Part shown: piece by piece, positions 1 to 58,199 of the stretch
Layout: every line of letters starts with the position of its first letter
How positions within the stretch are numbered: the stretch's first letter is position 1
Translations under genes and position numbers: made by a program
Origin: Obrimoposthia wandeli
Taxonomy: Eukaryota
Length of the DNA: 64,000 nt
Assembly: GCA_977020255.1 (NCBI GenBank)
Contig: CDROCS010004773.1
Span: 1 to 64,000 of the forward strand
Direction: 5' to 3'
Notes under the pieces: generated by a model
The model's input: only the letters and a program-made list of their open reading frames with translations
Told to the model about the DNA's origin: nothing
Database searches by the model: none

Positions 1-299
1 TCTGTATAGAACTTACCAAAGTGCTTAGAATTTTATATATATTTTTAGAAATACGTACATAAACGTATTCGATATATTAGTCCACGTGAATTACAAAATG
101 TCACAACTAATTTCTACAGTAGAACAAGTTGTTTTTTTCTCGAATACAAAGAGGCATCAATCAAATACCTTCAGATGCGTGAGATTAGAAACTATATAAC
201 ACTAAGTAGGCCATTCGCTTACAGAACCGTTCTATCGAACTACGTTGGGGCCCTCCGCACATAAGAGGATCTGTACCAAGTTTCGTATGAAAACTAACA
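1..299 (+). repeat. 3' end of the 5' LTR of copy A
   Basis: Aligns with 21870-22173 and 62550-62857 (e.g. gttggggccctccgcacataagaggatctgtaccaagtttcgta), with many indels. Confidence 0.85.
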
Positions 300-339
300 T
301 ATAAGTGATTGCCGGAAGCAGGATGTCAATCCGGACACA

Positions 340-1440
340 GCGATTCCGTGGAATAGTTCAAGATATTGAGAATAAGTTTCAAAATTAAATAGAATAAGTT
401 CAGATAAGTTTCAGACAATTGAGAATAAGTTTGGGTAAATAAAGAATAGAGATTGATGTCAGAATAAGTTTACAGATATTAAGAATAAGTTTCAGATATT
501 GAAGACAAGTTTCAAGATAAATTAAGAATAAGTTTCAGATAAATTGAGAATCGTTTGTAGAAGAATATAGACGAGTGAATAAGTTTCAGAAGGAAGATAT
601 AAACAAATTTCACAGAATAGTTTCAGAAGAAGATGCAAGTAAATTGAGATGAAATTGGTAGTGTTGAGAAATCAGTAGATTTGTTCCTCGAAGTTAAAGA
701 ATTTGATAAGAGGTGTTGAGAAATCAAGTAGATTTGTTCTAAAGTTAAGAATTCTGATGATGTTGAGAAATCGAGTAGATTGTTCCGCCGAGTTAAGAAT
801 TTGATGAGGTGTTGAGAAATCGAGTAGATTTGTTCCTCGAAGTTAAGAATTTGATGATGTTGAGAAATCGAGTAGATTTGTTCCTCAATTAAGAATTTGA
901 TAAGGGTGTTGAGAAATCAGTGATTTGTTCCTCAAGTTAATTTAGTAAGTGTTGAGAAATCGAGTAGATTTGTTCCTCGAAGTTAAGAATTTGATAAGTG
1001 TTGAGAAATCAGAATTTGTTCCTCAGAAGTTAAGAATTTGATGATGGTGAAAATCGGTAGATTTGTTCCTCGAAGTTAAGAATTTGATAGAGTGTTGAGA
1101 AATCAAGTCGTTTGTTCCTCGGAAGTTCTAAAAAATTTGATAAGTGTTTGAAATCGGTAGATTTGTTCCTCAAGTTAGAATTTATTGAAATGTTGAGAAA
1201 TCAAGTAGATTTGTTCTCGAAGTTAAAATTTTGATAAAGATATTTGAAATCAGTGCGATTTGTTCCTCGAAAGTTAAGACATCAGTGTTGAGAAAATCAA
1301 ATGGTGTTCCTCGAAGTTAAGAATTTGATACTAAGTGTTGAGAAATCGAAGACTAGATTTGTTCTCAGTTAAGAATTTGATAAGTTTTGAGAAAGTCGAG
1401 TGGATTTGTTCCTCAAAAAGAATTCAGTAAATTCTATAAG
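340..1440 (+). repeat. 5' leader tandem arrays (~20-bp unit, then ~49-bp unit), degenerate
   Basis: Noisy copies of gagaataagtttcagatatt and gaatttgataagtgttgagaaatcgagtagatttgttcctcgaagttaa. Clean versions at 62913-63960. Confidence 0.85.
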
Positions 1441-1891
1441 TGAGAATCGAGTGGATTGATACTCGAAGTAATTAATTGAATAAGTTAAGTCGGGAGACTA
1501 TTGTCATAAAACTAATTAAAAAGATAAAAATCATCGCTGAGTGATAAGTGAAGAGAGATCAGGTGGATTGATACTCGAAGTAATTAATTGAATAGGTTAA
1601 ATTAGGAGACTCTGTCCTCAGGCTAATTAAAGAGATAAAAAATCGTAAAATAAATTGTGAAATAAGATAAAAATAATAAGTAAATCGTAAACGAATACAT
1701 AAGTGAACAGACAACGAATAAATAAGACCACGTACTAATACTGAAGACAAAGTCAAATTCTGAGGAAGAGATAAATAATAATAAAGTTAACCGAATTGAA
1801 CAGGTTCCCAAACAGATAACAAAGTAACCAGAAAAGACTAGGAGTCGAAACGTATCAGAAAGAGACGTAAATCAATCAGCAGTTTCAACCG

Positions 1892-3260
1892 ATGGACAAT
1901 AGTTTTGATCTGACTGAGTTATTTCAGTGACATAAACCCAGAAGAAATTGATGATCTTGAGTTCAAACCAGAAGAAGTGAAATTGCCAATCAGTAGTGAT
2001 TGAAGAAGTTCAAGTAAATAATATTGAAGAATAGTTGAAGAAGAAATAGCTGAAAATATGGCTCACCCACAGGAGCTCAAGTAGATAATAATGCAGAAAG
2101 AAATAATGTGGTGACATGAATGCCGAGCAGTTGGCACAAGCTTTAAACGTCGTTGAGACCCAATTTTTCAGGATCATTGCAGATTACAAAGTTTTAAAGG
2201 AGATGAGGAGAGTATTTGTGACTTCCTCGCAGAATATTCGAGTTGTGCAGATGTTCAAGGATGGAGCACGATAAAAGAAAAATGTGTCGAGTACAGGCAT
2301 TTAACCGAGGGATTTAACGCAGGGAAGTGTATAAACATTTGACAGAAGCAGGAACGTTTAGACTGACAACGTTGGAAAATGCTTTTTATTGGAAATTGAG
2401 TAGTAGGAGACTTAGCCAAAATAAATAAGCGACTCATATGAGAGAACGGAAACAGAAACATGATGAGGCGTGAATGAATACATATGTTTTGAAACCTTTA
2501 CCAAGAGCGTACCCAAGAAGAATAATGAGAACTCCAGAAGGAATTACCAATAGCTCAAAAAGCACAAAATGACCGGAACCAAAATGAAATAGAGGTTTTG
2601 TTAGATATATTTGGGAGGATTGAGATATTAAAGTGTTATAGTATCAGTTACAAATGATTTTTACATTAATAAGTGCGAGGCGAGGAGATTGAAAAATATC
2701 AAATAGTGGCAATCTACTGTGGCTGCGGTGACGACGATAAAAGCAAGGTATTTGTGGGCAAAACAAGAACCGGTAATTTTCAGAATCAGTATGGACAAAA
2801 TAAGTTCGAAAAGTAGGTGGTCAGTAACTTGGAAATAGAGATAATTTCCCAGTAGAAGATCTGAATGATTCGAGGTAAATAATGGTGAGTCGTGGAACAG
2901 AATCGAGATGATTCAGAGGTAGAAATAATGATTCGTGGAATAGAAATGAAGAGATGATTTCAGGAATAGATTTAATGAGATAATTCAGATAACCGCTTGG
3001 AGAGACGATAGGAATTATAACCAACAGAGGGAGAGCAGTGACTCTCGATTTGGAAATAGCCTTTTCCCGGAAATAGTGACGGAAGATTCAGCCAATCGAG
3101 AAGCGGTTTTCCGAAATGATTTTCAGGGACGCTATGATAATGAACGAATGATCGTCAGTACAGTTCGAAGATGAACAAAATAGATAAGATATTCGAAGGA
3201 GAATAATGGTACACGTGTAGAAGCGAAGTGGGGTCACTATTCAGAATTGGGAACTAACAG
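1892..3260 (+). pseudogene. gag: gag-like region (frameshifted as read)
   Basis: Manual translation gives FKGDEESICDFLAEYSSCADVQGWST (~2190-2270), a Gypsy capsid-type motif, and a broken CCHC knuckle (YTC..E.GHYSR) at ~3205-3250. Confidence 0.6.
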
Positions 3261-5499
3261 ATTGGTAATTTCAGTAATAATAATTTTGAAATATTTATAG
3301 AGGATATATTCACACTACTTGGCAGGAATGAGGTGAGTGAGATATACTCCACAATAATGGAGACCAGCGATAATCCAGTATACAGATAGACAACAGTCAC
3401 CAGGTAGATACAATAACTATGCAGACCAGAAGACAGCAAGGAGCTGAGAGATACAATAATTACGTAGGACAGCAAGGAGCTGAGAGATATAATAATTCCG
3501 GTAAGATATAATAATAATAATGTCGACAAGACGACGATGATCGAGAGTTCACTTCGAAATAAAGAAAGGAAATTTTTAGTTATGTAAGCGATGACAGTGA
3601 TAAAGATCGAGACCAACTCGACGCGAAATAGATTTTGAAGAAGATAGTGATGATAAATTTAGGAACGAATGTTTAAGAATAATCAAAAAGATTCACCACA
3701 CAAAGATGGCTTGTGAGTCATCTACGTTGTCAGGAAACAAGAGAATCACACTCGAGAGATGAATGATTGTGAATAAAATACTGAGGAAGCGTATGAGACA
3801 CTTATTTAAACGTGTAACGCAGCCTATGACTGATCCGTAAGAAATGCTACGAGGTGTAAACATCATGGTGTTAAAGCTAAAGGAAACGATTGAATCAACT
3901 TAGTGAATGAAACAAAATTTGAAGCTCAAGAGTTTGGCCAAATTGCAAACAATTAAGTACCGATTGGAAGAAGTGCAGGCAGAATTAGTGGTTAAACATA
4001 GTCATGATAACTTGGGGTTACAGAAACAACCGGACGCTATTGAAGAGTTATGGTCGTTATGTGCAGAATCAAAACCAAAGGAACGATGAAAATTTCATAC
4101 AGTTAATTTCGGACAGATAATACATGAAAAGAAACTTAACGTGTATCAAAAACCGTTGAAACGATTCGAAAAAATTAGCCGAGAAACTTGAGGTGATGGA
4201 ATCAGATATGTTGTTCCATTATAGGGGAGATCACTAGACGATGAGGACGTACCAGTCAGTGTGGATATCCGATGAGGAAATGGTTGATGTCATCACTGTG
4301 GGACGGCGTCAAGAGTTAATGGGTAATGAAGAAGGGGATTAACCGAGATATTGAATTCTGCGTTAGAAATGATAAAAAACGCCTATAGAAATTTTACTAG
4401 ACAGTTCAAGCGAAAGCGGAGATAATGATGTGGCTACAGGCTTGGAATTAGAACATCACACAGAACCAGTACGGCGTAGCTGAATTACAGACATCTGGTT
4501 GAAAATGGGTTGACAACTCCGGTGGTCGAGGAACACAGAACCAGATATAATTCAATCCAGACAAGATGAAGTCACGGATACAGCTAATCAAGCGAGACAA
4601 AAAACCTTGTGGCAACTAGTAGGAAGACAGAAATCTCCGAATTATATTTAGATTCTGAATTTGGCATGCCGCATACAAAAGATGAACAAAGCAGAGCCAG
4701 ATGATGCGACAAAATGAAGAAGAGATTGGCCATGAAGAAGGACCAAGTCACGGAGATACAGTATGGCCAGTGAAACATGATCCAGGAAGAGAGATGAAAC
4801 TGAGTATCAGTATTTTCAGAAGAGGACCTGGAAGACCTAGAAAGAAGGCAAGTATATTACAGAGAGAAAATGTTCAACTGCACCCTGCAAACTGATGAAA
4901 GAGACATCTGATTGGACAGTTGGCACGTCATTGAAACGAAACATAGTGCAGAGAATGAAGATGATATCAGAGGTGATATGAATTCGGAAACTCAGTATTG
5001 TAAAGAATATACTTACGGGGAATTCTGCTCGGAAACAACAAGTGAAGCCGAAGTTGTTTAAAAACGCAGAGATGAAACAACCATTTGATATAACAGACAG
5101 TTATTCTAAAGCAGTCAGATGCAGATGTCTGCGGTAAAGAGATGACCGCGAGATCATGTGCCATTGCATCGATAGATAGATTTTATGACCTGGTGAGGGG
5201 TTTTAGCGAGACTATGTAAAACCAGACTAAATAAAGTTAATTACAGCGATGCATATCTATGATGACCAATTGACGGAACGAACAGCTAACCTCACGAAGT
5301 CAAACAAGGAATAAATGAAGCAAACCTGTATTTGATCGAGAATGTATTGAAAGACGAATCGACGAAAATGGAGGTTGGAAAAAATTAAGTGACTACGCTA
5401 AAACCATTGTGGAAATGAATGAAGACGATGACGAACAATGTCATGAGAATCGAAGATAAATCAAAGAGAAAATAAAACAATACCGTCAGAAAGAGAGAA

Positions 5500-7433
5500 A
5501 CAATCAACCCAAATATAATCACAACAATGATGATGATGAGTGTTAGTAATGTTCATGGGAATGCAACAGGCATCAGGATTGATAGCACTTTTAGCAGCAT
5601 ACCAAAGAAGATGGGACAAAAGTATTCACTGCTTGACAGCGAAGACTGCCATCCAGAATCACAACCGTCAAAATTAGAAGTTCAAGGTGTTGAAAACTTC
5701 TTTTGTATTATCAGGATGTTGGCCATAAAGTACAAGTAGAAGTGAAAGAATATGTTTCAATCCATTCAAGTTATCACGGAATTCTATTGTGGCCATAGAA
5801 GTTTTATGTCGGAAATCACACTACCACACCGTACAAAGCACATAAGGTTTTGCCGAGAGATTGCAAAGGCATTTCGAACGGGAACGATAGAAGTGAACAA
5901 GAATTACAAACCTGAAGTAAAATTGGGAGTGAGACGATACGAAACAGTCGAGAGTCAGTTAACCGATGGAGCTAGATGGATCTTGTGACGGAGAAACAAA
6001 AAACGTGCGTGGGACCAAAGTATCTGAGATAGTAAAGGATAAAACTTACAAAATCGAATTAAAAACTTGGACCGCCAATTTTGATAAAAGACACAACTAA
6101 TGATGAAGTATCCAGAATGTAAAATGACAATACATCTTGTTTTACGAGCGAATCCACAATTGTCATGAAGTGAATCGAAGCAATGCTCTTAGTATTTTGA
6201 AAGAGATTAATAGTTTAATAAAATAAAGGATTCCTGTATAATAGAGATGGAGAAGGGTTCTGTATAATAAAGTTGGAAAAGGATTGCTAAATGAAACAAG
6301 ACCAATTCCAATGACAAAGACACTTTTCTACACTGTTAATGGCAACATCAATAGAAGAAAGGATTGATATTTATTAAAAAAGAAAACAAAGCGCGATGCC
6401 AGGAATGCTATTTTATGCCTATCCAGGAATAGTTTTGTCCAAAGAAGCAATAGCACTTGGCAGAAACCAAGCTAGGCAAACCAAAAAATGCAGCTACACA
6501 CGTATTTTAATAATAAAATTGATTTCTATTATCATAAAGGATTGATGCAAATGGAACAGATTATATCGGATGATGATCGAAAGAGATTGCCAGCTAAACA
6601 AGAGATCGTAAGAACAAAGTTAGCATTAGCTATTACGAATCAGACATGGTAGCACCATTATTACCCTTGGATGAAGGAGTATTTGCTAAAACCATGGGAG
6701 AAGTATTGTATACTTACAAGTGTAATAAAGTAGAGGTACAGTTGAGAAAAACAGATCGATGTACGAGTGAATTGGCAGTAACGTATAATTTAAAAGATCT
6801 TTTTTGTTGAACCAATCACGAGAATGTTACTTCAAAAGACACTCAACTAAAGAAATCAGCTGCTCTAATATAATGGCACCTGAATATCAGATGACGAATG
6901 ATCTATGGATAACGTTACCTGATCGGAAGCCAACGAAACCCAGCATGATAAGAATGACGAATCTTAAGGTAAATGAAATTCAAGCAGCGGTGTGAAAATA
7001 TGGAGAACGCAGGATTGTACAATGAAAAGATTTAAAAGCGGCGTGGAACGAAATAATGTTTCCAGTAAGAAGAGCCAGAGTACTTACGGAGATGGTACAT
7101 CGAAACGCATTACCGCCAGGAGCTGGATATGCGAATTTCGATATGTTATTATCGCCAAGTCATTTCAAGGAAGCAGCATCAAGGCACTTAGAAAATGTGG
7201 AAATTCTTGTTTTTGGACAATTATTTTCGGGTATCATAGGTATATATATTATAATTAAATTTGTGCAGGTAATTATGGCCCAGGTGTTGTCTACGTATAG
7301 TTTATACAGGATAACAGGAATCACCCATGCAACTTATAATTGGATGTTTTCCATTTTATATCTAATGCACTATCATCACGAGAACGAGTTGCGAGCCCTC
7401 AAGAAGGAACAACACAAACGAGAACCATGGTGA
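5500..7433 (+). pseudogene. env: Env-like fusion glycoprotein resembling chuvirus-type G (frameshifted as read)
   Basis: Fragments SLLDSEDC, EFYCGHRS, LLPLDEGVFAKTMGEVLYTYKCNKVEVQLRKTDRCTSELAVTY, EPITRML..C..MAPEY..W, then a C-terminal hydrophobic block FGQLFSGIIGIYIIIKFVQVI. Family assignment is from motif recall, not a search. Confidence 0.7.
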
Positions 7434-7759
7434 TGCGAGAACCAAGAAACTATCTGAGACGACAACGACGACGATAATGATAGTCCAGGAGTATATGCAA
7501 AGATACCAGGAAAACCAAAGATTCGTTACCAGACAAGGAAGAAGTGGCGTTAAACCTATCCCATCAATGAAGGAACTAAGGAGGAGGAGAAGGAAAGAAG
7601 TTCAAGAGAGGAAAAGCATCGCAATACATAAAGATGATAGGAGAAGGCCTAAAAGAGTGAGCTACAGTGAAATTCCACAAGCAAGAGGAAAAAGACAAAA
7701 AAGATAATTCCAGAAGAATTCTGAAGTCTAGGATATCAAATGAGAATCAGGTAATGCTC

Positions 7760-8085
7760 CACCACAAGTAGCAGTAACATTGAACGGAAGAGAATACCTT
7801 GCCGAAGTTGATACCGGATCTGCAGTATCAGTACTGAGTAAAGAAATCTTCTCATCAAAAGAATTAAGAAGTATGTCTAGAAAACAGACATTTGTTAACG
7901 TGAATGGTACAGATGTAGTGTCGGAAGGAACACTGAAATGTTCATTGAATATCGATGGAAGAAACATTGCAGTTAAATGCTAGAATATTCACAGATTGCG
8001 GAAGTCAGTCATGATTGGGATGGACGTAATACGAATGTTTGAAGGAATAATTATACTACCAAACAACAAGAGTTATAAAGAATGA
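7760..8085 (+). pseudogene. Retropepsin-like aspartic protease 1
   Basis: VTLNGREYLAEVDTGSAVSVL...VNVNG. After one in-frame TAG (7981-7983) the frame continues NIHRLRKSVMIGMDVI (xIGxD motif). Confidence 0.8.
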
Positions 8086-8259
8086 CAGTTCAAAGTGAGA
8101 GAGATAAAAATGTTGAGAGGACCCATAGTCGAAAAAGGAAAAATGCACTACGTTCCGTATGGGAGGTTCAATACCCAGACAGAAAACAGGAAGCGCTAGT
8201 AAAGTCGATACTTCACTACAAAAATGTAAATTTCGGACCACAAGCTACGACGAGGAGAA

Positions 8260-9320
8260 AATAACATATGTGAATTTGTCAGAAAAAGATCCCATGAGAT
8301 TCGAGAGAAAGAGACGAAATATATTAGAACAGTACTATTCAAAGGAATGGCACGTAAAATGGCAAGATCAGGTTTAGAAATGTTAAACGCGACAAGTAGT
8401 TATGGTCATGAGGAAGTAGTACGATGCGTATGGTGTAGAGTAAAGTTCAGAGAATGGGAAAAGAATGAAAAAGCAATGAGACGTCATAAAAGAGATGCAC
8501 CAAATTGTCCATTTCTTTTGAAACTGAAAACGTCAAACGTACCAGAAATCCAAACAGGGAAAAGCACCCGATTTCGATTACAGTGACAGGGATTCCAAAG
8601 GAGAATCAGCTCTAATAACAGGAAGAGTAATAACGAATAGTCAATTGAAGATATATTCGAAGTTATGCGAGAAGTGAACGAATGTGACGAACAATATCGA
8701 GAAGTAACTTTCGAAGATCCAAGACTTAAAAAAATTGGCAAAAAGGGACTTTTTGCTATAAAAAAGGATGGTAAAGACGTAATTAAATGCCACAAGTGTA
8801 AAAAAGAACGAATTATCGACAGATATACTCTTGAGCTACCTAAATTTTACATCATGAATTTTTGCGAATTTTGTACTTTTTAAAAACAAAATAAAGCAAA
8901 AAAGAACAGAAAACAGAATGTATAATCGAATACCAAAATCACACGAAAAGAGATTTTGGCTCAACAAGACACACCGGTAGTGTCATTCGTGAGAAAAGGT
9001 TATATCCAAAAGAAGCAGAAAGAATCAGAGAATTGGTAGAATTAAAAAATAAAAACTACGCGAAACGGATACGGATCGATTTTTGAATTACTGCGAGATA
9101 AAGATGACAGTACAATTGAAACAAAAGAGAAGAGTACATAAATGAATTAGAATACGTACTAGAAAAGATCCGGAATGCGCAGTTTGCATGGTCAACAAAA
9201 TAGAAGTTGCCTTTCTACCATGCGGACATGTAAGAACATGTCGGAGATGTGCGAAATGAAATGGTATCATGTCCAATTTGTCGAAGAATAATAGATCGAC
9301 AAGTGAGAAACATTAGATTT
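8260..9320 (+). pseudogene. Inhibitor of apoptosis (BIR + degenerate BIR + C3HC4 RING)
   Basis: ORF 8347-8586 has the canonical BIR spacing C-x2-C-x16-H-x6-C (CVWC...H KRDAPN C). 8665-8883 has R.VTF...GLF..D.IKCHKC. 9175-9290 gives CAVCMVNKIEVAFLPCGHVRTCRRCA//CPICRRII. Confidence 0.85.
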
Positions 9321-9384
9321 CACTATCCAAACAAAGGGAAGTGGACTGACAGAGTGTAATAATTCGATAAATACAATATACCAT

Positions 9385-10176
9385 ATGGGAAACATAAATG
9401 GAGCACAGCGACCAGCAGCTATCATTAGAGTAAATAATTTAAGAGTAAAAGCCTTAATTGATACAGGTGCTGTAGCTTCGATAGTAAGTGAAGACTGTTT
9501 GACAGAGGAACAGAAACGAACAATGGCAGAACCAGATGAATTCTTGGTATCGGTCAATGGAGACCCTGTAAAAGTGACGGGAATATTACCATGTACATTT
9601 ATAATTGGACGTAATACGATCACTATACCAGTTAGAATCATGAAAGAATGTCCTGAACCTACAATTTTAGGAATGGATGTATTATCACAACTCAAAGGGA
9701 TAAGTATTGATTTACAAGATCCAAGATTGAAGGATAGCACATCAAACAGACAAATAAACCAAATTGATGTAATTATAGAGAATCCTATAAAAATCGGTAA
9801 AAGATCACAATTTCTCATTCAAGGTCACACATTATCAGAAGATAAAGGACCAGTTGTGTTCGAACCATCACGAGATTTCATAGAGAAATACGAATTACCA
9901 GTTGTGAGTACAGTATGCCTGATCGAAAACCACAAAATACCAGTTAGACTGATGAATACAACCAACAATGACATCCTATTATACAGAGGAATGAGGTTGG
10001 GAAAGATAGTACAAATGGAGAATCCCACCGTGTGTGCTATGAAACTCGATAAAGATACGAATGATTACGAAGAAATAGTAATCCAATCAGAAAGACTGAC
10101 AACTAGAGAAAAGAAACAATTACTTGATCTAATACATAAATTTCCGAAAGTAATTGCAAAAATCCATATGACATAG
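9385..10176 (+). CDS. pol: Pol N-terminus: retropepsin 2 plus spacer
   Basis: ALIDTGAVASIV and PTILGMDVL motifs. Confidence 0.9.
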   Translation: MGNINGAQRPAAIIRVNNLRVKALIDTGAVASIVSEDCLTEEQKRTMAEPDEFLVSVNGDPVKVTGILPCTFIIGRNTITIPVRIMKECPEPTILGMDVLSQLKGISIDLQDPRLKDSTSNRQINQIDVIIENPIKIGKRSQFLIQGHTLSEDKGPVVFEPSRDFIEKYELPVVSTVCLIENHKIPVRLMNTTNNDILLYRGMRLGKIVQMENPTVCAMKLDKDTNDYEEIVIQSERLTTREKKQLLDLIHKFPKVIAKIHMT

Positions 10177-10199
10177 GAGAAACACCTGTCATAAAACAT

Positions 10200-10970
10200 A
10201 CAATACCACTGACAGAAGACAAAGTAGTCAGAAGAAGACCATATCGAGTACCATTACAATTACAAGATGAAGTAAAAGTCAGATCGAAGATATGTCTAAA
10301 ACAGAGTAATTAGACCGAGTTTTCGCCATTCTCAGCACCTGTGGTGTTGGTAAAAAAGAAGGATGGGAAAATGAGATTCTGTATAGATTTCAGAGAACTG
10401 AACAAGATCACAAGAAAAGATGTGTATCCATTACTAGAATCGAAGAGATGCTCGATAAATTGGGTAATTCAGATTATTTACGACATTGGATTTGCAGAGT
10501 GGATACTGGCAAATCGAGATAGAGGAAGAGGATAAACACAAAACAGCCTTTTCCTGCGGAGATGGATTGTACGAATGCGAAAAGATGCCATTCGGACTGA
10601 CAGGAGCTCCAGCAACATTTCAGCGTTGCATGAATTTTGTACTCGCATCGTGTGCAAACACGATGGTTTATATTGATGACATAATAATATTTTCGAAAAC
10701 GTTCGAAGAACATTTAAAAAATCTTGAAGTTGTATTTAAAAAAGACTGGAAAACGCTAAATTAAAAGTTAAACCTACAAAATGCGAATGGGCTAAAGAGC
10801 GAGTAACATTTTTAGGACATATAGTATCGAAAGAAGGCATTCGACCTGATCCAGCAAAGATCGAGAAGTAAAAGCATTTAGCGCCAAAGACTGTTAAGGA
10901 GATACAGAGTTTTTGAGGTCTTGCGAATTATTATAGACGATTTGTTGAACATTTTTCAGATATAGCAACA
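10200..10970 (+). pseudogene. pol: Reverse transcriptase (frameshifted as read)
   Basis: [55 protein letters not shown]. Confidence 0.95.
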
Positions 10971-10973
10971 CCA

Positions 10974-11711
10974 TTGAGAAAGTTGACGAGAAAAGATGAG
11001 AAGTTCATATGGGGAGAAGAAGCCCAACAAGCGTTCGAGCATTTAAAAGAAAGACTGATAAAAGCACCAATATTAGCGTTTCCAGATATAAACCGACAAT
11101 TCATACTCATGACAGATGCAAGTAACTATGCTGTAGGAGCAGTATTGGGACAAGAGGATGACGAAGGAAGAGAACACGTCATCGCGTATGCGAGTAGAGG
11201 ATTAAACAGAGCCGAAAGAGGATACTCTGTTATCGAAAAGGAATGTCTAGCCATAGTGTATTCATGTAGACAGTACAGACACTACTTGCTAGGACAAAAA
11301 GTATTCCTATATACAGATCACAAACCACTACAGTTCTTGTATAAACATAGAGATGAGATGAGTAGATTAAACAGATGGTTCCTAAAATTAGCCGAATTCG
11401 ATCTAGAAATCCGTTATAGAACCGGAAAGTCGAACGGCAACGCAGATTGTTTATCGAGATTGACAAATGTAGACGAAAAAGGAAACATAATTCCAGAAGA
11501 AGATGAAACCAATGACCAAAAAGGAGAAGCAAATCTACTGACGATTTTGCTAAAGACGGGTAAAATAGACAAAGAGATCATCAAAGAACAGAAAGAAGAT
11601 GAAGAACTGAGTCTAATCAAAGAATTGTTGGTGAAAGGAGATCTAAACGATGAAATGACGAAAAAATACTCGATAAAAGAAGGAATCTTGTATATAATGT
11701 CGGAAAGATAG
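10974..11711 (+). CDS. pol: RT connection + Ty3/Gypsy RNase H
   Basis: LMTDASNYAVGAVL, YSVIEKECLAIV, YTDHKPL, NGNADCLSR. Confidence 0.95.
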   Translation: MRKLTRKDEKFIWGEEAQQAFEHLKERLIKAPILAFPDINRQFILMTDASNYAVGAVLGQEDDEGREHVIAYASRGLNRAERGYSVIEKECLAIVYSCRQYRHYLLGQKVFLYTDHKPLQFLYKHRDEMSRLNRWFLKLAEFDLEIRYRTGKSNGNADCLSRLTNVDEKGNIIPEEDETNDQKGEANLLTILLKTGKIDKEIIKEQKEDEELSLIKELLVKGDLNDEMTKKYSIKEGILYIMSER

Positions 11712-11731
11712 TAGTAGTAATTCCGAAGTCA

Positions 11732-13264
11732 TTGAAAACAGCAGTGATGATCCAGTATCACGACGGAACACTAGGAGGACATCTGTCAGGGCGAAAGACA
11801 ATAGCCAGAATCAAAGAGAAGTACCATTGGGATGGTATGGAAGACGACATAAAACAATGGTGTAAACAATGTAAAGTATGTTTAACCAGAAAAGACACCG
11901 GAACTCGTACTAAAGTTCCACTGAAACCAATGCCAGTTCCCTTGGCACCAATGGAATTCACAGCGATGGATATATTGGGACCATTGAGAGAATCAAGTAA
12001 AGGAAACAAGTACGTCATAGTATTTACGGATTACATGACGAGATGGGTAGAAGCATATCCCATGCAGAACCAGAAAGCTGAAACAATAGCGCAAATCTTA
12101 GTGGAAGAGATAATATTTCGATACGGAGTGCCCAGAAAGTTATTAACGGATCAAGGTAAGAACTTCACTGGAGAAGTCATAAAAGCAGTATCGAAGATAT
12201 TCGGAATCATGAAGTTACAAACTTCACCATATCACCCACAGACAGATGGTCTGGTAGAAAGGTTTAATAAAACTTTATGTATGATGGTACAATCCTATTG
12301 CTCAGACAAGCAAGAGGATTGGGATAAATATTTACCTTCATGTCTATATGCTTACAGGAATTCAGTTCGAGAGGCGACGGGTCACACACCATTCTATCTG
12401 ATGTATCTCAGACAGAACAATATGCCGATGGATCTGGAGTGGACCGAGCCAACATCTCAGTATCTAGAAACTGAACAATACATTGTCGTCATGAAGGAAA
12501 GATTACAAGATGCTTGGACCAAAGCCGGATTGAAGTTGAAATTCAATCAAGAAGGTTACAAGGAACAATACGACAAAAAAGCAAAACCACATGAATTTAG
12601 AGTCGGAGATCAAGTGATGATATTTTATCCAGTCATCGAACCAGGTCTATCGTTTAAACTTCATAGACCATACAAAGGACCATACAAGGTGATCCAGACA
12701 ACTTCAACAAATTTGAAAGTAATCAACGAAGAGAATCGGAACAAGGAACCGATGATTGTACATGCAAATCGATGCAAATTAGTACCAAATAAAGATAATG
12801 CGTCACGATATGAGTTAAGATCACAGAAATCGAAATCGAATACCAATACCATTAAACTTACACGAATGGTAAGTGATCGGAACTACATAAACATGATGAC
12901 GAGTGGTAGCGAGGAAAAACCAGCAAGAATTGGTATGCTCAGAATGAAGTACCAAGAGGAAAAGGAAGTAATCCGACACATCGCACCACAAGAGATATTA
13001 GAAGAAGACGAAGAGATAATAGTCGTTTTCGAAAAAACACAACCAACAGATGTAGCTAAAGAAGTCATTGTGAAAGATGCACTAACAAACGAATTTCTGT
13101 GCGAACTTAGAGTGTCATACTATGACGGGAATACACTAGTCGCAGCGCTTTATCAAAATTCCAATGTGTTTACGACTGAGAAAGTGATAATCGAAATCAC
13201 ATTGACACCAAACATAGTTGCATGGCAGAACTATGACAGTACTGAAGCAGGACTAGCCAGTTAG
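11732..13264 (+). CDS. pol: Integrase (HHCC, DDE core, GPY) with C-terminal extension
   Basis: YHDGTLGGH...CKQC, AMDILGPL, LLTDQGKNF, TDGLVERFN, PYKGPYKV. Confidence 0.95.
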   Translation: MKTAVMIQYHDGTLGGHLSGRKTIARIKEKYHWDGMEDDIKQWCKQCKVCLTRKDTGTRTKVPLKPMPVPLAPMEFTAMDILGPLRESSKGNKYVIVFTDYMTRWVEAYPMQNQKAETIAQILVEEIIFRYGVPRKLLTDQGKNFTGEVIKAVSKIFGIMKLQTSPYHPQTDGLVERFNKTLCMMVQSYCSDKQEDWDKYLPSCLYAYRNSVREATGHTPFYLMYLRQNNMPMDLEWTEPTSQYLETEQYIVVMKERLQDAWTKAGLKLKFNQEGYKEQYDKKAKPHEFRVGDQVMIFYPVIEPGLSFKLHRPYKGPYKVIQTTSTNLKVINEENRNKEPMIVHANRCKLVPNKDNASRYELRSQKSKSNTNTIKLTRMVSDRNYINMMTSGSEEKPARIGMLRMKYQEEKEVIRHIAPQEILEEDEEIIVVFEKTQPTDVAKEVIVKDALTNEFLCELRVSYYDGNTLVAALYQNSNVFTTEKVIIEITLTPNIVAWQNYDSTEAGLAS

Positions 13265-13342
13265 GAAGAGAAGGAACCGGCCGGTGGTCACATACTGCAT
13301 GGTACACCAAAAAGACTCAAACAAGAATACCACGATGTAATA

Positions 13343-15211
13343 ATGGTATTACGTAATTCACATGGGAAAAGAGATATCATGAGAGTCCATTTAATCGACG
13401 CTGACACTGAAAAGATAATTTGTCAGATGGACACCAAATACTTTGATGGAAAGACAATTGTATGTTGTATACCAGAATCTCACCGGTTAGACACAGATCA
13501 AACGGAAGTATCTGTAAGGTTGAGCGTAATAGAAGGATTTCATTCGCTAAACCATCCGGAAGTGACTAACAATAAAATCATCAAAGCAACGGCAGAGTTA
13601 CGCATTGACAGCGGATACCGGAAGTGGGAAGCTAAAAATAAAAAACCACAAAGAATCAATATGATCCGAGAACAAGTGACCAACTCAATCCAGCCAAAAT
13701 ATCATGCTGAAATAGTATCATCCGCGCCAAGTGTAATTACATCGATAAACGACGAAATTATAATTTTACTAAAAAATCGATGGCCGTCATCAACTGAGAT
13801 ACGAGTAAACTTAATTAATTATGCGAAGACACCGATATCTAAGCTGAATGTTACCTATTTCGATGGATTGTCCATCATGGGTAAATTAGAAACAATTGTC
13901 ATGTGCTATGGAGCACAGTTCCAAGTTGAGATACTTAAAGACAGTGTAATACCGTATCCAATTCACAAATACGAAGGGGAAATCAATCCAATTATTCTAA
14001 CCCCTTCATTAATTTCAGTTCAGACAGACATACCAGAATACCCTTCGAGCGAGTCTAGTGAAGACAGCGAACCGGAAAGTAACGATACAGAATCAACAGA
14101 ATCCGAAGATAACATAATAGAGCGATTCGGAAGAACCATGGAGGTTGAATTCGCTAAAGAGAACAGAAAAAGACAAAACATAGAATTCGTGAAACAGAAT
14201 ATACAAGAAAGACGAATTAAATCTGCAGAAGAGACCGAGTCGGAAGAAGACTCAACAAAGGAACAGACATCAGAGACAAAGATGAATATCTCTCCAGCAA
14301 TACGAATGCTGAGAGGAAAGAAACTGGCAAAACTATCTAACATCGACGAACAGATAGAGAAGAGATTAGAAAGACTAAAACTTGAAGAGTCAGAATTAAT
14401 GCCACCAATGAGTGAGATCATTCCAGGTAAGTTATACCTCGGAAATGTGGAGGATGCAACAGATGAAAAGAAACTGTTGGAACAAGGGATAACATACGTG
14501 ATCAACGTTACAATGAATCACAAATCACAATATCAGACGATCAGAGCCATGACATTAAGAGTAAAAGACTCAATGGATGCTAATCTTCTCGAATGGTTCG
14601 TAGAAACAAACGAAATACTTCACAGAGAACTCCGGAACCAAGGAAAAGTGTTGGTACATTGTCAGAAAGGAATTTCTCGATCAGCAACTCTAGTATTAGC
14701 ATACCTAATAAAGACTAGACGAATGCAGGTACTAGAAGCGCTAAAATACCTACAGGAGAGAAGAAGTATTGCAAACCCAAATCTTAATTTTTTGGGACAG
14801 TTGGCAAATTACCAACTTCTGTTGCAAGAACAAAGACGGATGGACGACATTCCTGAGGATCCAAAGGAAAAGAATTTCCTCCAAGCATTATCATTGACCG
14901 GGTTATTCTTAGCCGGAGTCGACAAAATTACACAGATAATGCCAAAGGTATTTTTATGTCATCCAGGAGATATAGATACTGCTGGATTAAAGTTCCACAG
15001 TATCAACCGAGTAATCAACATTGTTGAAGTCGGAAACGAAATAATCAGTCTGTGTCAAAATACTGAAGATGACACCACTCGATACATACACGCTTCCAAT
15101 CGAGAAATAAACGATGCACAACAACATCTGACGAAATTGACTCAAACCATCCAAGCTGAAGTCACAGAAGGAAACGGCGTTCTGATATATCAGAAAAAGG
15201 TACGATGTTAG
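13343..15211 (+). CDS. Accessory polyprotein: repeated ~90-aa domains, acidic linker, dual-specificity phosphatase, start of a pseudophosphatase
   Basis: SEIIPGKLYLGN...GITYVINVT...VLVHCQKGISRSATLVLAYL...PNLNFLGQL (CX5R intact, Cys at 14660). A second DUSP-like unit starts ITQIMPKVFL. Same frame as the integrase ORF, separated by one TAG. Confidence 0.9.
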   Translation: MVLRNSHGKRDIMRVHLIDADTEKIICQMDTKYFDGKTIVCCIPESHRLDTDQTEVSVRLSVIEGFHSLNHPEVTNNKIIKATAELRIDSGYRKWEAKNKKPQRINMIREQVTNSIQPKYHAEIVSSAPSVITSINDEIIILLKNRWPSSTEIRVNLINYAKTPISKLNVTYFDGLSIMGKLETIVMCYGAQFQVEILKDSVIPYPIHKYEGEINPIILTPSLISVQTDIPEYPSSESSEDSEPESNDTESTESEDNIIERFGRTMEVEFAKENRKRQNIEFVKQNIQERRIKSAEETESEEDSTKEQTSETKMNISPAIRMLRGKKLAKLSNIDEQIEKRLERLKLEESELMPPMSEIIPGKLYLGNVEDATDEKKLLEQGITYVINVTMNHKSQYQTIRAMTLRVKDSMDANLLEWFVETNEILHRELRNQGKVLVHCQKGISRSATLVLAYLIKTRRMQVLEALKYLQERRSIANPNLNFLGQLANYQLLLQEQRRMDDIPEDPKEKNFLQALSLTGLFLAGVDKITQIMPKVFLCHPGDIDTAGLKFHSINRVINIVEVGNEIISLCQNTEDDTTRYIHASNREINDAQQHLTKLTQTIQAEVTEGNGVLIYQKKVRC

Positions 15212-15378
15212 CGCCTACCATAGGTGTATCCTTGTTGGTAGAGTACCATGGTCACACGCCAGAAGAAGCGATGGTCTACATCAAACAGAATAGACCAAAT
15301 ACGGAATTCAAACCGTTACTCGTTCGAGAAATAGAAAAAATACACCGAAAAGAGGAAGCAACAACGAGAAACAAATGA
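14920..15378 (+). pseudogene. Second, catalytically dead DUSP-like domain
   Basis: After a 1-nt shift at ~15198 it reads GVLIYQK-GTMLAPTIGVSLLVEYHGHTPEEAMVYIKQNRPN, with no Cys or Arg in the P-loop position. Confidence 0.65.
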
Positions 15379-15391
15379 AGCTACAACAACA

Positions 15392-16021
15392 GTGCCCAGC
15401 TTTCAATACCAAAGATTGTTAGCGATAGGCTTGTTAAGTTGTCTAATGCCAATAACGGGAGCACAAGAAATAGGCTCCAACCACGGAAATAGTTCCTGGT
15501 TCAACGAAATCCACAACTACACCATACAGTACCATACGCCGGCACTGATGATGCTATTAGTGTTGTTAGGACTAATTGATGTGTGGATCATCCGAAAATG
15601 TCTTCGATCTATGAGAACCGACAGTAAAAGATTTCAGTTTGTAAAGATGAAAAGACCAAATGGACCAACGAACAAAGTGCTTGTGTATCTAGACGAAAGG
15701 ATCGAGGACAACATAGTAAATGAAGCGATATTTTACCCACAAAACAGAATACTGAATCAATTTCGAATAGATTACGAAGCTGACCGACAGCGCACACTTG
15801 ACCGAATATCAACAACATTCGCCGGATGCAAGCGAAGAAAACGAGTTGTAAAGGAAATACAAAAAGATGCTGATACAAAAGGACCAACGTATATATTCGA
15901 CGGCGATGTCATCAAAACACGTGAGTATGGAAGTAAGAGAGTAATAATTGAAACGATGGAAGGACATAAAACATGCTTGTCCGCCAAAAATGGATTCGGA
16001 AAGTTGACGATACAAAGGTAA
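15392..16021 (+). CDS. Putative membrane protein of unknown function (no ATG; possibly part of the polyprotein)
   Basis: 209-codon open frame with a signal-like segment LLAIGLLSCLMPITGA and a TM-like segment ALMMLLVLLGLIDVWII. Confidence 0.5.
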   Translation: MPSFQYQRLLAIGLLSCLMPITGAQEIGSNHGNSSWFNEIHNYTIQYHTPALMMLLVLLGLIDVWIIRKCLRSMRTDSKRFQFVKMKRPNGPTNKVLVYLDERIEDNIVNEAIFYPQNRILNQFRIDYEADRQRTLDRISTTFAGCKRRKRVVKEIQKDADTKGPTYIFDGDVIKTREYGSKRVIIETMEGHKTCLSAKNGFGKLTIQR

Positions 16022-16061
16022 CCCGGTACAGTTAATTATCGGAAGAAATGGAATCGAGGAG

Positions 16062-18080
16062 ATGTCAAAACAACGACAGACAACAAAACGATCCAATCAG
16101 AAACAGATATCTCTCAAACGATTGATAATTAAAACCCTTTGCAAAAGGTCAGTCAAGGCCCTGTGCACCGTTGCACAAGGATTGATCTATGGAGTAGTAA
16201 TTGGATTGGTACTGCAAGCCATGCCAACCAGTAAAGCCGAATTGATGACACTATCTGAATATAATTTACATTTGAGAAATCTAGACAACACCCTAGAAAT
16301 AATCAAGACATCCCACAGTAAAGCCGTGATGATCATGTGTGTAAAAGGATGTCCAGGACGAATGTGTATAGTCCCAGCGACCGAAATGATAACACTTAAT
16401 GGACATTATGGAATTAGTGTTGTCACATGTGAAGACTACATATTTGGACAAACTAAAATAGTGCTTCTCAGTGACATGTCCAACCAAAGTGCACACAAAT
16501 TTAAAATATTAACCATCAAGAGTAAAGGAATACCAGCAGTACGTTACGGTATTCTAGAATTGGTTAATCCGATACTCGCACTGATCATTGGATTTATAAT
16601 ATTAATATTACTCATCTTGTTTTGTTGTACAAAGATAGAGTTGAGATCAAAAAAGAAACGTCATGATCTCGCAAGACGAACAGGTCAAATGAATTTACAA
16701 AAATTCAACACAAGTATACCAAGACCACCCTTCCTAGATGAACCAGCACCAGAGTACCAGCCAACGATATATGAACATATCGAGGAAAGACCGTACTATA
16801 TGAGTAATTTGAGTTGTTTCATTGAAGTTCCTGAGTTTAGGAATCGAACGATCATAGGAATCATGCTGATCATACAAATTACCACTACCAAGGCTAGTTA
16901 TGTGATCATGATCAGTAAATGGAGACAAGATGTAATACGGGCGTTATACATAGAAATCCCTTTATTAAAAACAAATCACGTAGTAGACATTCATCTACAG
17001 ACGTCAGCAACCGACAATATCGATCAGAAATTGTATGTCATCCGACAGGTCAGAATAAAGATCGACCAAAATACACCCGATTACAATTTAATATTATTGT
17101 ATCATGAAAAAGTGTTATACCTACGGATAACAATATCGAAGAGGAAGCGGATTATCCAAAGTATCCGAACAAAGTCATTAATATTGCCTAGAGATGAACG
17201 CATCTGGAAAATTGTCGACAGGATTATGATCACAGGTAGACGACGTAAAGCCGTATGGAATTCCGTTAGGATATTTTTCAGATTGCTAGAAACTGACAAA
17301 GTAACAGTAATGTGTCCCAACCCAGATGGCGGAATCAGATTCGAAATCCAAAGCCAAAAGTTAGTACCACATTTTAACACGGAATGTCTGTGTAATCGAA
17401 TTTCCAGTAATACTACAGAGACCTCGACCATAATCATGATAATAACAGGTGAAATATTCTACATAACTCTAAGATACCAGAACCGTCGATTTCGTAGATC
17501 CGGTATAAGTATCAAACCCAGGAAAATCATTCCCAAAAGGCCAATCCTAGTCAGAAAGAAGGCAAAAGTAAACGAAAGTAAACGCCATTCCAAAAAACCG
17601 ACAGTGATCAGAACAAAGACAGAAGCGAAAGAAAAAGAGCTCAATCCCAGAAACCAAAGTACAATTATTAAGAGGACAAGAGTGAGGGGAACGATCCCAC
17701 TAGATCCCAAACATCATTTCCAATCCAAAATAATAATACCTGTTCCATCAGAAACAAAACACCCAAATCCACGAATTTTTAGAAAATCGGACATAATACA
17801 TGGAAACCGATCAAAACCCATGGAAATGTCATTTGAACCGACAAACAACAAAATGAAGTATGATTATAAATCATCAGACAGCGGAATAACAACGGTCAAT
17901 GCCCTAATTGGAATGGCCGTAGTGTCAACAACAGTGGTTCTATTGACAGTCGTGTGCGTAAAAGGCAGTCAAGTATGCCCAAGAATACGACGAAAATGCG
18001 AAGGATTGCGATGCTGTGACACACCCATCATGGAGGAAGTGGAATTGCGACCCTTACCTCCGCCTTCCATCAAGATATGA
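16062..18080 (+). CDS. 672-aa multi-membrane-segment protein of unknown function
   Basis: Long intact ORF with four hydrophobic segments (GLIYGVVIGLVLQA, ILALIIGFIILILLILFCC, IIGIMLIIQITTTKA, ALIGMAVVSTTVVLLTVVCV). Confidence 0.7.
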   Translation: MSKQRQTTKRSNQKQISLKRLIIKTLCKRSVKALCTVAQGLIYGVVIGLVLQAMPTSKAELMTLSEYNLHLRNLDNTLEIIKTSHSKAVMIMCVKGCPGRMCIVPATEMITLNGHYGISVVTCEDYIFGQTKIVLLSDMSNQSAHKFKILTIKSKGIPAVRYGILELVNPILALIIGFIILILLILFCCTKIELRSKKKRHDLARRTGQMNLQKFNTSIPRPPFLDEPAPEYQPTIYEHIEERPYYMSNLSCFIEVPEFRNRTIIGIMLIIQITTTKASYVIMISKWRQDVIRALYIEIPLLKTNHVVDIHLQTSATDNIDQKLYVIRQVRIKIDQNTPDYNLILLYHEKVLYLRITISKRKRIIQSIRTKSLILPRDERIWKIVDRIMITGRRRKAVWNSVRIFFRLLETDKVTVMCPNPDGGIRFEIQSQKLVPHFNTECLCNRISSNTTETSTIIMIITGEIFYITLRYQNRRFRRSGISIKPRKIIPKRPILVRKKAKVNESKRHSKKPTVIRTKTEAKEKELNPRNQSTIIKRTRVRGTIPLDPKHHFQSKIIIPVPSETKHPNPRIFRKSDIIHGNRSKPMEMSFEPTNNKMKYDYKSSDSGITTVNALIGMAVVSTTVVLLTVVCVKGSQVCPRIRRKCEGLRCCDTPIMEEVELRPLPPPSIKI

Positions 18081-18203
18081 TGAGTCAGAGGAGGTTGTAG
18101 ATAAATTAGTGTGTGAAATATGTAGAAATATCTAGAAGCGATTGTACAAATAGTAGAAATATATAAAACTCATGTAGAAATTAATTCTCATCATGTATTT
18201 AGA

Positions 18204-18503
18204 ATGTCCGAAGAATGCCCAATATGTTTGGAAGATCTAACCGAACGAAGAACAAGACCCGAAACCTGCAACCATTTACACCACGAGGAATGTTTATCGA
18301 CATGGATCAGAACTTATGGACAGTTCGGACATCCAACATACCCTTGTTGCCCTGTATGCAGAAGACAATTCGCAAGATTCATCATGTTAGAACCCAACCA
18401 AGAGGATGTATATGTACAGGTGGTATTCTGTTGGAAGAATTTCGGAGAGTGTTGGTGTTATTACTGTTTGTCAGAACGACAAAATCCGACCACTTTTGTG
18501 TAA
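18204..18503 (+). CDS. RING-H2 protein 1
   Basis: CPIC...CNHLHHEEC...W...CPVCR. Confidence 0.85.
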   Translation: MSEECPICLEDLTERRTRPETCNHLHHEECLSTWIRTYGQFGHPTYPCCPVCRRQFARFIMLEPNQEDVYVQVVFCWKNFGECWCYYCLSERQNPTTFV

Positions 18504-18563
18504 ACATCACACAACCACCAGTCCTCAATCGAGCCCAAATTCAACATCAACCCTCTCACAGTA

Positions 18564-18869
18564 ATGTCTGGAGAATGTTCCATCTGCTACGAGAGCATCG
18601 TGGACTTCTACACCAAGCCCAACAACTGCGACCACCTCTTCCACGTCGAATGCCTCGAGACGTGGATCCCCATCGCAAACAGCAACAATCCCCTCGACTT
18701 CCCAACCTGCCCGATGTGCAGAGCGACCTTCTCAGTACACTACGTGTACAACCAGGACAGCCTCCAAGCAGTGATACCCATCGTACACTGCTGGAAAACC
18801 ATCTGCGATTGCTGGTGCTCGTTCTGCGTGGAGGAGCGAAGCACAGGCCAGCCCAATTCCCAACAATAA
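18564..18869 (+). CDS. RING-H2 protein 2
   Basis: CSIC...CDHLFHVECLETW...CPMCR. Confidence 0.85.
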   Translation: MSGECSICYESIVDFYTKPNNCDHLFHVECLETWIPIANSNNPLDFPTCPMCRATFSVHYVYNQDSLQAVIPIVHCWKTICDCWCSFCVEERSTGQPNSQQ

Positions 18870-19208
18870 TCGAAGGTAACTTTCTGACTTGAACGTGACA
18901 TCATGAACTACCCTGTGTATCGCATACCGCGATAAATTAGCTACCATAATTGTAATCATAATTATATAATCTTGTGAACTGTAAATTGACCATTACCATT
19001 TTTATGTATGATGTTTAACTGAAATTGTAATTATTATACTGAAATTCTAAAAAGACAATTTTTATGCTTAGTGTGAATGCGTAAACATGCCTAAAATCGG
19101 AACAAAACTCGGTAGGATTAAATAACTAAGGATTCGTTTTGAAATAAAATTTAAATTAACGATGAGAACGGTGAACCCCAAATTGAAAGGAGTTATTTTC
19201 TTGTGCAG

Positions 19209-19739
19209 ATGAAGTGTTCTGTATGCATGGAGAAAATTTGGGCGGCATCAGCATCCCCTGTCGGCTGCTGTCACAAATTTCACGAGGCGTGCCTCTATTT
19301 GTGGGCCAAGGCTCGACCCCCTGGCCAAATCACGTGCCCACTGTGCCGGACACCCTTTGGCAAATGGACGCTCCAGTGCCGTGGACGATCCAAGGGCACC
19401 CGATCACCTGCCAGCTGCATTGGTGGCATACACTGCCAGTGCTACGTGTGTCTCGCACGCCGGCGCGACACACAATTGGGCATCCGCGAGCGATGGCGGT
19501 CTAGCCGTGACTGCCATTCATGGTTCCAGGCCAGACGTCTATGGATGGAGAACCATGCGCTGAACGGGCAATATTTCGACCTGTTTGTCGAGAGCCCACA
19601 CCTAACCCGGAGCCAGCAACTACACCTCTACAACGGGGACAGTCCGTCCTTTCCCGATCTACCCCTGGAGCAGGTCCTGCGTTACCTGACCAGTCGGAAT
19701 CAGCCGACAATTACAATCGATCTAACTAACGACAATTGA
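19209..19739 (+). CDS. RING-H2 protein 3 with C-terminal SIM-like motif
   Basis: ATG at 19209. CSVC...CCHKFHEACLYLW...CPLCR, ending TITIDLTNDN. The C-terminal half is conserved in copy B. Confidence 0.88.
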   Translation: MKCSVCMEKIWAASASPVGCCHKFHEACLYLWAKARPPGQITCPLCRTPFGKWTLQCRGRSKGTRSPASCIGGIHCQCYVCLARRRDTQLGIRERWRSSRDCHSWFQARRLWMENHALNGQYFDLFVESPHLTRSQQLHLYNGDSPSFPDLPLEQVLRYLTSRNQPTITIDLTNDN

Positions 19740-20564
19740 TAACGTTAAATCCTTTCCTCCCTTCTTTCCTTCCTAATTCTTAATTTATTCATGTAGATTT
19801 TTTTGTGTATAAGTAATAATGTATGGTTTGAGACTTGCTCCAAATTATACATTATGATTCCCACTAAAAACTGGGGTTTTGAGAATTTTTTTTTGGGCAT
19901 GTTTGATGAGTTGAATGATTGATTTTGTAGGGATGAACCTAAAATCAACAGCCAGAGGCTTGTATAAGTAAAATCGATACGTTCCGGGGACGTAACTTTT
20001 TTGGAACCCCCGAGGTATGTTAGGTTTGAGAATTAAGAAATTAAAATATTTTAGTCGATTAAATACTAAAATAAAAATCCTTGAAAGCAAGGTTGAAAAT
20101 TAAATTAAATATTAATTTTAGATTCAAAATTGAAATTAGTGGAAGTTAGGGTAAAAATTAGGAGGACCACGAAGGTCGTGTATAGTGTAAGATATATATA
20201 AGTTAAATTAATTAACCCAAAAGTGCAACAAAACACATTAATAAAAGAAAAAGGAAACGTCAATTAAAGAACGTCAATTAAGGTAAGCACATTTTCGTGC
20301 AGTGAGTTAAAATTAATTTTCAGCTGTTCAATATTGCTGAATTCCTATAAGCCGGAAGAGCAGGAACACTCAAGAGTTGATTGACAACTCATAGCGAATA
20401 TAAAAGAGTCGCTGACGAAGTGAACACAAACCAGAACGAAAATTAGCTAGGAATCAATATCACCTGAAGTCTACGGAGCGGAATCTTGGTAAGTAGGAAT
20501 TTGGGTTGCATTTATAATCAATAATTTAGATTGCCGCATATAACTGATTAGAAGAAGCTAATTG

Positions 20565-21140
20565 TCAGTTTTAAAAGGAATAATCATCAATTGCCAGTTT
20601 AAAAGGAATAATCATCAATTGCCAGTTTAAAAGGAATAATCATCAATTTCCAGTTTAAAAGGAATAATCGTAAGTTGCCAGTTTTAAAGAATAATCGTTT
20701 ATTGTCAGTTTAAAAGGAATAATCGTAAATTTCCAGTTTTAAAGAATAATCGTTTATTGTCAGTTTAAAAAGAATAATCGTAAATTTCCAGTTTTAAAGA
20801 ATAATCGTTTATTGTCAGTTTAAAAAGAATAATCGTAAATTGCCAGTTTTAAAGAATAATCGTAAATTGACAGTTTTTAAAGAATAATCGTTTATTGTCA
20901 GTTTAAAAGGAATAATCGTAAATTGACAGTTTTTAAAGAATAATCGTTTATTGTCAGTTTAAAAGGAATAATCATCAATTGCCAGTTTAAAAGGAATAAT
21001 CGTAAATTGACAGTTTTTAAAGAATAATCGTTTATTGTCAGTTTAAAAGGAATAATCATAAATTGCCAGTTTTAAAGAATAATCGTTTATTTTCAGTTTA
21101 AAAAGAATAATCGTCAATTGCCAGTTTTAAAAGAATAATC
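20565..21140 (+). repeat. LTR-A minisatellite, ~28-bp unit
   Basis: gtttaaaaggaataatcatcaattgcca and variants. Confidence 0.9.
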
Positions 21141-21260
21141 GCCTATCGATAAACCTTCGAAGACGATCACACCAGTTCGTCAGAACTACATACGGATCCA
21201 GTACCGGATTGACGCAGTCGCAGCTAGTCGCAGCATATCGGTAAGAACACCGACTAGAGC

Positions 21261-58191: not shown

Positions 58192-58199
58192 GTTTATTT

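Follow-up and report, generated by a model that had tools for sequence, protein, structure and literature searches.

A chuvirus-type envelope gene in frame between Gag and Pol of a giant Burro-like Gypsy element from Obrimoposthia wandeli, with a predicted passage of the polyprotein through the ER membrane

Introduction

An env gene located in frame between gag and pol has been published for the planarian Burro/GYPSM1 elements (Arkhipova and Yushenova 2019, PMC6431247). As described there, Burro exceeds 30 kb and possesses one ORF of ~5,000 aa, which encodes Gag, CCHC, ubiquitin-like and BCL2-like domains, the in-frame env, protease, RT, RNase H and integrase; it carries BIR and RING cargo, its env matches mononegavirus glycoproteins, and it exists in very many copies, with MATH and ankyrin domains varying between elements. 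Burro1 is transcribed and PIWI-silenced (PMC8532177), and its BIR-RING module is treated by Lee et al. 2026, cited in PMC13465017. Chary and Hayashi (2026, PMC13524379) also reported GAG-ENV-POL elements with a gB-type env, termed 'ancient errantiviruses', from Platyhelminthes (including six from Schmidtea), Nematoda and Bryozoa; the main text of that article contains neither 'polyprotein' nor 'in-frame', and no treatment of topology or cargo. In addition, a chuvirus glycoprotein is carried by the Anakin BEL/Pao elements (Dezordi 2020, PMC7642597). The parts of these accounts that describe the layout do not address how env could function when it is locked between Gag and Pol.

Here we analyzed the first 64 kb (the window) of contig CDROCS010004773.1 (C4773) from the 1.35-Gb assembly of Obrimoposthia wandeli, the first 22 kb of which is one Gypsy LTR element of a ~22–24-kb family. 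The Burro features given above, from the single ORF and its domains to the BIR and RING cargo, the mononegavirus-type env matches and the very high copy number, are shared by this element, with strong matches for BIR and RING and weak ones, backed by relatives, for the ubiquitin-like and Bcl-2-like domains. It differs from Burro in its smaller size, which falls short of the >30 kb given for the latter, and in its single zinc knuckle, compared to three in Burro and two in the D. tigrina element (PMC6431247). Beyond the published Burro description, it has two proteases, a phosphatase and several C-terminal membrane modules. Pfam found no MATH or ankyrin domain in the O. wandeli element, and ankyrin is present in its relatives P0003 and P0273. 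We filed it as a Burro-like GAG-ENV-POL Gypsy element, likened to Burro by description, with no named Burro among the sequence matches.

With the elements of PMC13524379, it shares the gene order, gB-type env, Gypsy pol and many near-identical copies; moreover, by eye, the O. wandeli env agrees in cysteine spacing and motifs with the six Schmidtea env rows in the supplement of that article. Anakin carries the same glycoprotein family on an LTR retroelement, but of BEL/Pao backbone (PMC7642597), whereas the RT, RNase H and integrase of our element are of Gypsy type and its env precedes pol, to which it is fused. Canonical insect errantiviruses, in contrast, have an F-type env in a separate ORF after pol, unlike the gB-type env found here before pol and in the same frame. 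Position and type of env are already published, so the locus is a new example of a known layout, and the preliminary description, which regarded the position as non-canonical, is not supported on this point (PMC6431247, section 7; PMC13524379). A literature search, which did not extend to Lee et al. 2026 (Dev Cell, Burro1) and Grohme et al. 2018, found no published threading model. What the present work appears to add is support for threading of the chain through the membrane via signal-plus-anchor pairs, also around an extra cassette in mid-pol.

Results

The giant ORF encodes, in order, Gag, one CCHC knuckle, ubiquitin-like and Bcl-2-like domains, the signal, env, its anchor, a protease, a BIR–BIR-like–RING module, a second protease, RT, RNase H, integrase, a phosphatase and further membrane modules. 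The features of the window copy are listed below.

1–300 (+): 3' remnant of the 5' LTR and degraded primer-binding site; 3–294 aligns with the LTR end of copy C454; truncated by the contig start, end approximate
651–1486 (+): 49-bp tandem repeat of the 5' leader
2061–18080 (+): single giant ORF, ~5,350–5,490 codons, broken in this copy
2180–2699 (+): Gag capsid region (Retrotrans_gag, E 0.0068, below cut-off)
3210–3250 (+): one CCHC zinc knuckle (PF00098, E 1.3e-5)
4086–4297 (+): ubiquitin-like domain (PF00240, E 0.0021, below cut-off)
4987–5405 (+): weak Bcl-2-like domain (PF00452, best E 0.045, below cut-off; the same profile stretch reaches E 0.001 in relatives P0001 and P0003)
5515–5578 (+): internal signal sequence, with a predicted signal-peptidase site just upstream of a conserved AYDC motif (rough scale rather than SignalP; a hydrophobic segment lies at the same place in relatives)
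5579–7198 (+): Env ectodomain, class III (gB-like) fusogen, 14 cysteines
7206–7289 (+): predicted Env transmembrane anchor (rough dG 0.2)
7314–7379 (+): second, weaker hydrophobic stretch with a His patch, predicted non-crossing (rough dG 2.0 versus 0.2 for the anchor); the stretch also occurs in stand-alone G proteins
7765–8034 (+): aspartic protease 1 (Pfam scan of the window)
8344–9299 (+): BIR, second BIR-like stretch and RING, an IAP-like module (PF00653, E 1e-10, two stretches; PF13920, E 2e-11)
9412–9699 (+): aspartic protease 2 (Pfam scan of the window)
10350–12769 (+): reverse transcriptase, RNase H and integrase, in Gypsy order
14417–15346 (+): dual-specificity phosphatase and a degenerate second phosphatase-like repeat (PF00782, E 8.7e-41, two stretches)
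15416–17960 (+): predicted C-terminal membrane modules, about three further signal-plus-anchor pairs (no Pfam match at E 0.01)
18126–19739 (+): three small accessory RING-finger ORFs
20018–22173 (+): 3' LTR (TG...CA)

The PR–RT–RNase H–IN order is of the Ty3/Gypsy type, and the best RT matches, among the 120 listed, are Gypsy-type proteins. PDB sequence searches with the Bcl-2-like domain found no Bcl-2 protein. A dUTPase-like region is assigned by position only, and the Pfam scan near it gave no match. The phosphatase, in frame behind the integrase, is absent from the Burro domain list of PMC6431247. The approximately three predicted surface proteins at 15416–17960 gave a weak match to orthoreovirus p10 (E 0.028, below cut-off).

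The five copies measured are 21.7–23.9 kb long with TG...CA ends, and a 4-bp target-site duplication is clear in four of them and ambiguous in one (window copy excluded). Recent movement of the family is indicated by its LTR pairs, which differ by 0–12 substitutions over the stretches compared. A protein search of the genome returned 18,909 first-look candidates, a figure not to be equated with the copy number, and the 144 scored candidates are 97%–100% identical.

Within 5,500–7,433, no long frame is open in the window copy. Compared to two natural copies, this stretch contains 66 and 63 indels, respectively, of which 57 and 56 are not multiples of three, whereas the two natural copies differ from each other by almost no indels inside the ORF. 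Against the same two copies, the indel density drops from 67–70 per kb at 2–5.5 kb to 33–34 in env, 14–15 at 7.4–11 kb, and less than 1 beyond 11 kb. Given that the indels fade with distance from the contig edge, they are likely uncorrected read errors rather than decay. In all six copies chosen for long frames, env, both proteases, BIR, RT, RNase H and integrase lie in a single frame of 4,017–5,220 aa, which runs from the Gag start in two of them. Thus, the single Gag-Env-Pol polyprotein frame put forward in the preliminary description is open in natural copies. Among 40 copies chosen by protein match, env is stop-free in 27, with the Bcl-2 and protease motifs also in frame in 17, counts that are biased upward by the choice on protein score. 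Contigs from four sequencing runs of one sample covered the region that extends from the LTR to the protease and includes env (30 of 30 bins), with only short skips among the joints listed; this has no bearing on splicing or expression.

The env of the giant family spans 5,515–7,379 and comprises ~620 aa, of which the ectodomain (5579–7198) accounts for ~540 aa. A glycoprotein with a cysteine pattern, a signal-like start and a hydrophobic end, upstream of both proteases, had been proposed for this place and is indeed found there; the proposed ectodomain of ~640 aa was too long, and the signal-like stretch is present, with the tail of the stretch originally quoted lying off-frame. The suggested kinship with chuvirus G and class III fusogens was borne out by both sequence and modeled fold. 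An unbroken natural env matches PF24664 (Monjiviricetes_fusion) at E 1.5e-93 (314 bits versus a cut-off of 27), and the window fragment 7026–7430 also scores above the cut-off (E 1.4e-11, 43.6 bits). The AlphaFold2 model of the ectodomain from 121 sequences has a pLDDT of 92.5 and a pTM of 0.75. The comparison with class III fusogens by Foldseek, which the preliminary description had advised, yielded a gB-like fold: all matches listed from the PDB are herpes gB, with a best E of 2.1e-12 and TM of 0.38–0.46 for post-fusion forms. In VIA, class III fusogens fill the best 12 rows, with gB, rabies G, thogotovirus and baculovirus GP64 among them and Z falling from 9.9 to 4.5; the superpositions gave an rmsd of 10.9 over 425 positions at Z 9.9 and 3.8 over 156 at Z 9.6, the full-length rmsd being large. 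A first env fold from five sequences was poor (pLDDT 41) and its Foldseek matches are leads only; in the viral library search with this poor model, chu-like G proteins already rank top. A single-env sequence search of the PDB returned nothing below E 0.2, and a 121-sequence env profile found only weak gB matches there, at E 0.08 and up. Env is a Monjiviricetes/chuvirus-type glycoprotein with, as modeled, a herpes-gB-like class III fold, and a predicted fusogen.

All 14 ectodomain cysteines are invariant in seven of seven relatives, and 13 are kept in at least 90% of the 121 sequences. They are likewise invariant in the 44 of 60 sequences that align as giant-family copies, the 16 left out being ten loci of a second family and stretches with too little env. 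In these 44 copies, shared variants have a pN/pS of 0.10, and private variants 0.32 with 10 stops; the values point to purifying selection on env in the giant family, with a bias towards conservation, as the copies were chosen by protein score, which lowers pN/pS. Env has one N-glycosylation sequon only, a point against the threading proposed below.

A search for env relatives gave 1,361 at E 0.001 or better. The top tier is mostly embedded in longer proteins, with a protease or RT behind env in 10 of 14 scanned (E 0.001), and the lower tier consists of G proteins that stand alone, with lengths near 650 aa and roughly 25% identity. At 28%–43% identity, env sits at the same place in a compact second family of the same genome, in a metagenome contig and in database proteins. 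In quick trees, the same nine Gag-Env-Pol elements fall on one side of a branch, both for RT-RNase H (support 92; 14 Gypsy outgroups of the 120 matches) and for Env (support 100; six stand-alone G proteins). Both trees contain the P0136/P0137 split and the group L101–P0273–P0126; inner positions of the giant family differ between them or lack resolution. None of the 453 pattern matches among viral contigs is a relative, and the RT search among long proteins returned generic Gypsy only, with PF24664 in none of the 120 matches listed. Env shares its ancestry with RT, the two trees having their main branches in common, and a single old env acquisition followed by gain of cargo would fit these data best.

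It is extremely improbable that the env segment represents a nested insertion or a chuvirus G that was captured recently and independently, a reading to which the likeness with stand-alone chu-like G proteins at about 25% identity lends some color. The preliminary description inferred an independent capture and named a nested insertion with its own ends as the observation that would speak against its account. The former is at odds with an env common to the whole clade at the same position and with the grouping of the nine elements in both trees. The latter is contradicted by the position in relatives, by a segment in frame at both ends, and by a GC content of 36.7% in env versus 37%–38% in the rest of the ORF; furthermore, no repeats flank env among the 20 largest direct-repeat families listed. 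That env lies between gag and pol was correctly seen; directly behind gag, however, it does not lie, as the ubiquitin-like and Bcl-2-like domains intervene (weak Pfam matches, as listed above).

Three relatives are as follows. The compact second family (C430:309319–323773, L112–L114; also on C1708, C325 and C2381) has 1.28-kb LTRs that are 99.8% alike and one 2,911-aa ORF of the order Gag–signal–env–anchor–PR–RT–RH–IN–signal–ectodomain–anchor. Its env is 41% identical to that of the giant family, and no Bcl-2 or BIR cargo was seen in it. L101 (2–10282, 10617–12107), on the metagenome contig, encodes a 3,426-aa protein with three proteases and an extra signal–ectodomain–anchor cassette in mid-pol; a downstream ORF is an exonuclease (PF00929, E 1.4e-5). 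P0273, of 4,844 aa, has seven protease stretches, ankyrin and a tiny signal-plus-anchor cassette ahead of the last pre-RT protease.

Topology was assigned on a rough hydrophobicity scale rather than by SignalP or DeepTMHMM. In the giant family, the compact family and L101, the strong hydrophobic segments are paired, signal-like with anchor-like, and an even number of them precedes the enzymes. Across 13 polyproteins, all enzyme motifs are behind an even segment count in 12 at one threshold and 11 at another, a result that in most of the 13 reflects the signal and anchor of env itself, so that the informative cases are L101 and P0273 only. The even count of P0137 is accidental, as the anchor of its env was missed, and P0004 and P0133 are odd. 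In both L101 and P0273, RT still follows an even number of crossings despite the extra cassette. The second hydrophobic stretch after the env anchor could also cross the membrane. Upstream of the signal, no pyrimidine-rich splice acceptor was found in any of the three families, and a Met just before the signal core is lacking in 9 of 16 relatives. Because of the paired segments, the even counts, the missing acceptor tract and these nine relatives, we propose co-translational threading, release of Env by signal peptidase, release of Pol by the proteases, and budding at ER membranes. The passage through the ER membrane suggested in the preliminary description thereby gains support as a prediction, from signal-plus-anchor pairs and enzymes behind even crossings on this rough scale.

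The frame could be continuous and Env nevertheless be mostly a separate product, made from a spliced or internally started transcript at the Met-rich signal, as in insect errantiviruses; we give this only a small chance. The signal of the giant family starts with several Met residues, which makes separate translation of env possible, a Met lies near the signal in 7 of the 16 relatives, and a 1:1 ratio of Env to Gag would be unusual among retroviruses. On the other hand, the absent acceptor-like tract and the nine relatives without Met argue against it, as does a frame open on both sides of env across the clade.

Discussion

We consider it likely that env is inherited and conserved in this giant Burro-type Gypsy retroelement, where it shares one frame with Gag and Pol, and that the polyprotein is threaded through the ER membrane during translation, which would yield membrane-wrapped particles. 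Initially, Gag-Ubl-Bcl-2 would be made in the cytosol. The internal signal would then open translocation and signal peptidase would cut just upstream of the AYDC motif, so that the Gag-side precursor would keep the signal as its tail anchor. Afterwards, the ectodomain would fold in the lumen as a class III trimer, the anchor would return the chain to the cytosol, and the proteases of the element would free BIR-RING, RT, RNase H and integrase. Finally, Gag, Env and Pol, produced in equal number (1:1:1) and held on the same membrane, would bud into the secretory path, and Env would fuse the particle with a new cell or endosome.

This putative route is reminiscent of the flavivirus and hepatitis C polyproteins, in which capsid, internal signal, glycoprotein, anchor and cytosolic enzymes form one chain that is cut by signal peptidase and a viral protease. 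The analogy is a working one, without homology: the fusogen there is of class II, whereas here it is of class III and belongs to a retroelement. With more doubt than confidence, we also entertain a flavivirus-like build for a whole clade of animal retroelements. Signal peptidase and the elements' own proteases would cut a multi-pass polyprotein of up to 5,500 aa into Gag, a gB-like fusogen, Pol and further surface proteins at 1:1, ER budding would produce an enveloped infectious particle, and new membrane modules would be gained only as signal-plus-anchor pairs. The giant family, with thousands of candidate loci, near-identical LTRs and Bcl-2, IAP and phosphatase cargo, would then be a currently active example.

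A threaded and conserved Env might instead act in or on the producing cell, as an assembly scaffold, in cell-to-cell fusion or in receptor blocking, rather than on free infectious particles. We regard this as unlikely, while granting it some weight: purifying selection is silent on purpose, the Bcl-2-like, BIR-RING and phosphatase modules are aimed at host cell survival, and Burro1 is said, second-hand via PMC13465017, to aid stem-cell survival. However, the complete class III fold retains all its cysteines, and the fold is also kept in the compact family, which has no such cargo.

For the threading through the ER that we favor, the paired signal/anchor pattern provides a concrete model with a predicted cleavage site and sidedness. 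It also constrains the topology of chuvirus-type G proteins, since, wherever Pol follows, the tail behind the anchor must end on the cytosolic side. With a young and very abundant family alongside a compact 13-kb sister family in the same genome, the question can be addressed in host tissue.

Several minor observations concern the relatives and the surroundings of the element. The Gag-Env-Pol relative P0128, which NCBI lists under a Flavobacteriaceae metagenome bin, is likely eukaryotic contamination; P0143, a stand-alone-type match with DUF5641 ahead of G, falls outside the Gag-Env-Pol branch. The tRNA scan found no tRNA gene in the 64-kb window. An ORF at 43270–44514 on the reverse strand resembles, by eye, the C-terminal nuclease part of a non-LTR element, with no Pfam match; 44512–46696 holds a more diverged 3' end and LTR of a related copy, and 56578–60101 an integrase fragment (PF00665, E 2.9e-12) whose neighbors appear Polinton-like by eye. 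At 60645–64000, a second copy of the giant element begins, with an LTR to 62857, primer site and 49-bp repeat, and continues past the window.
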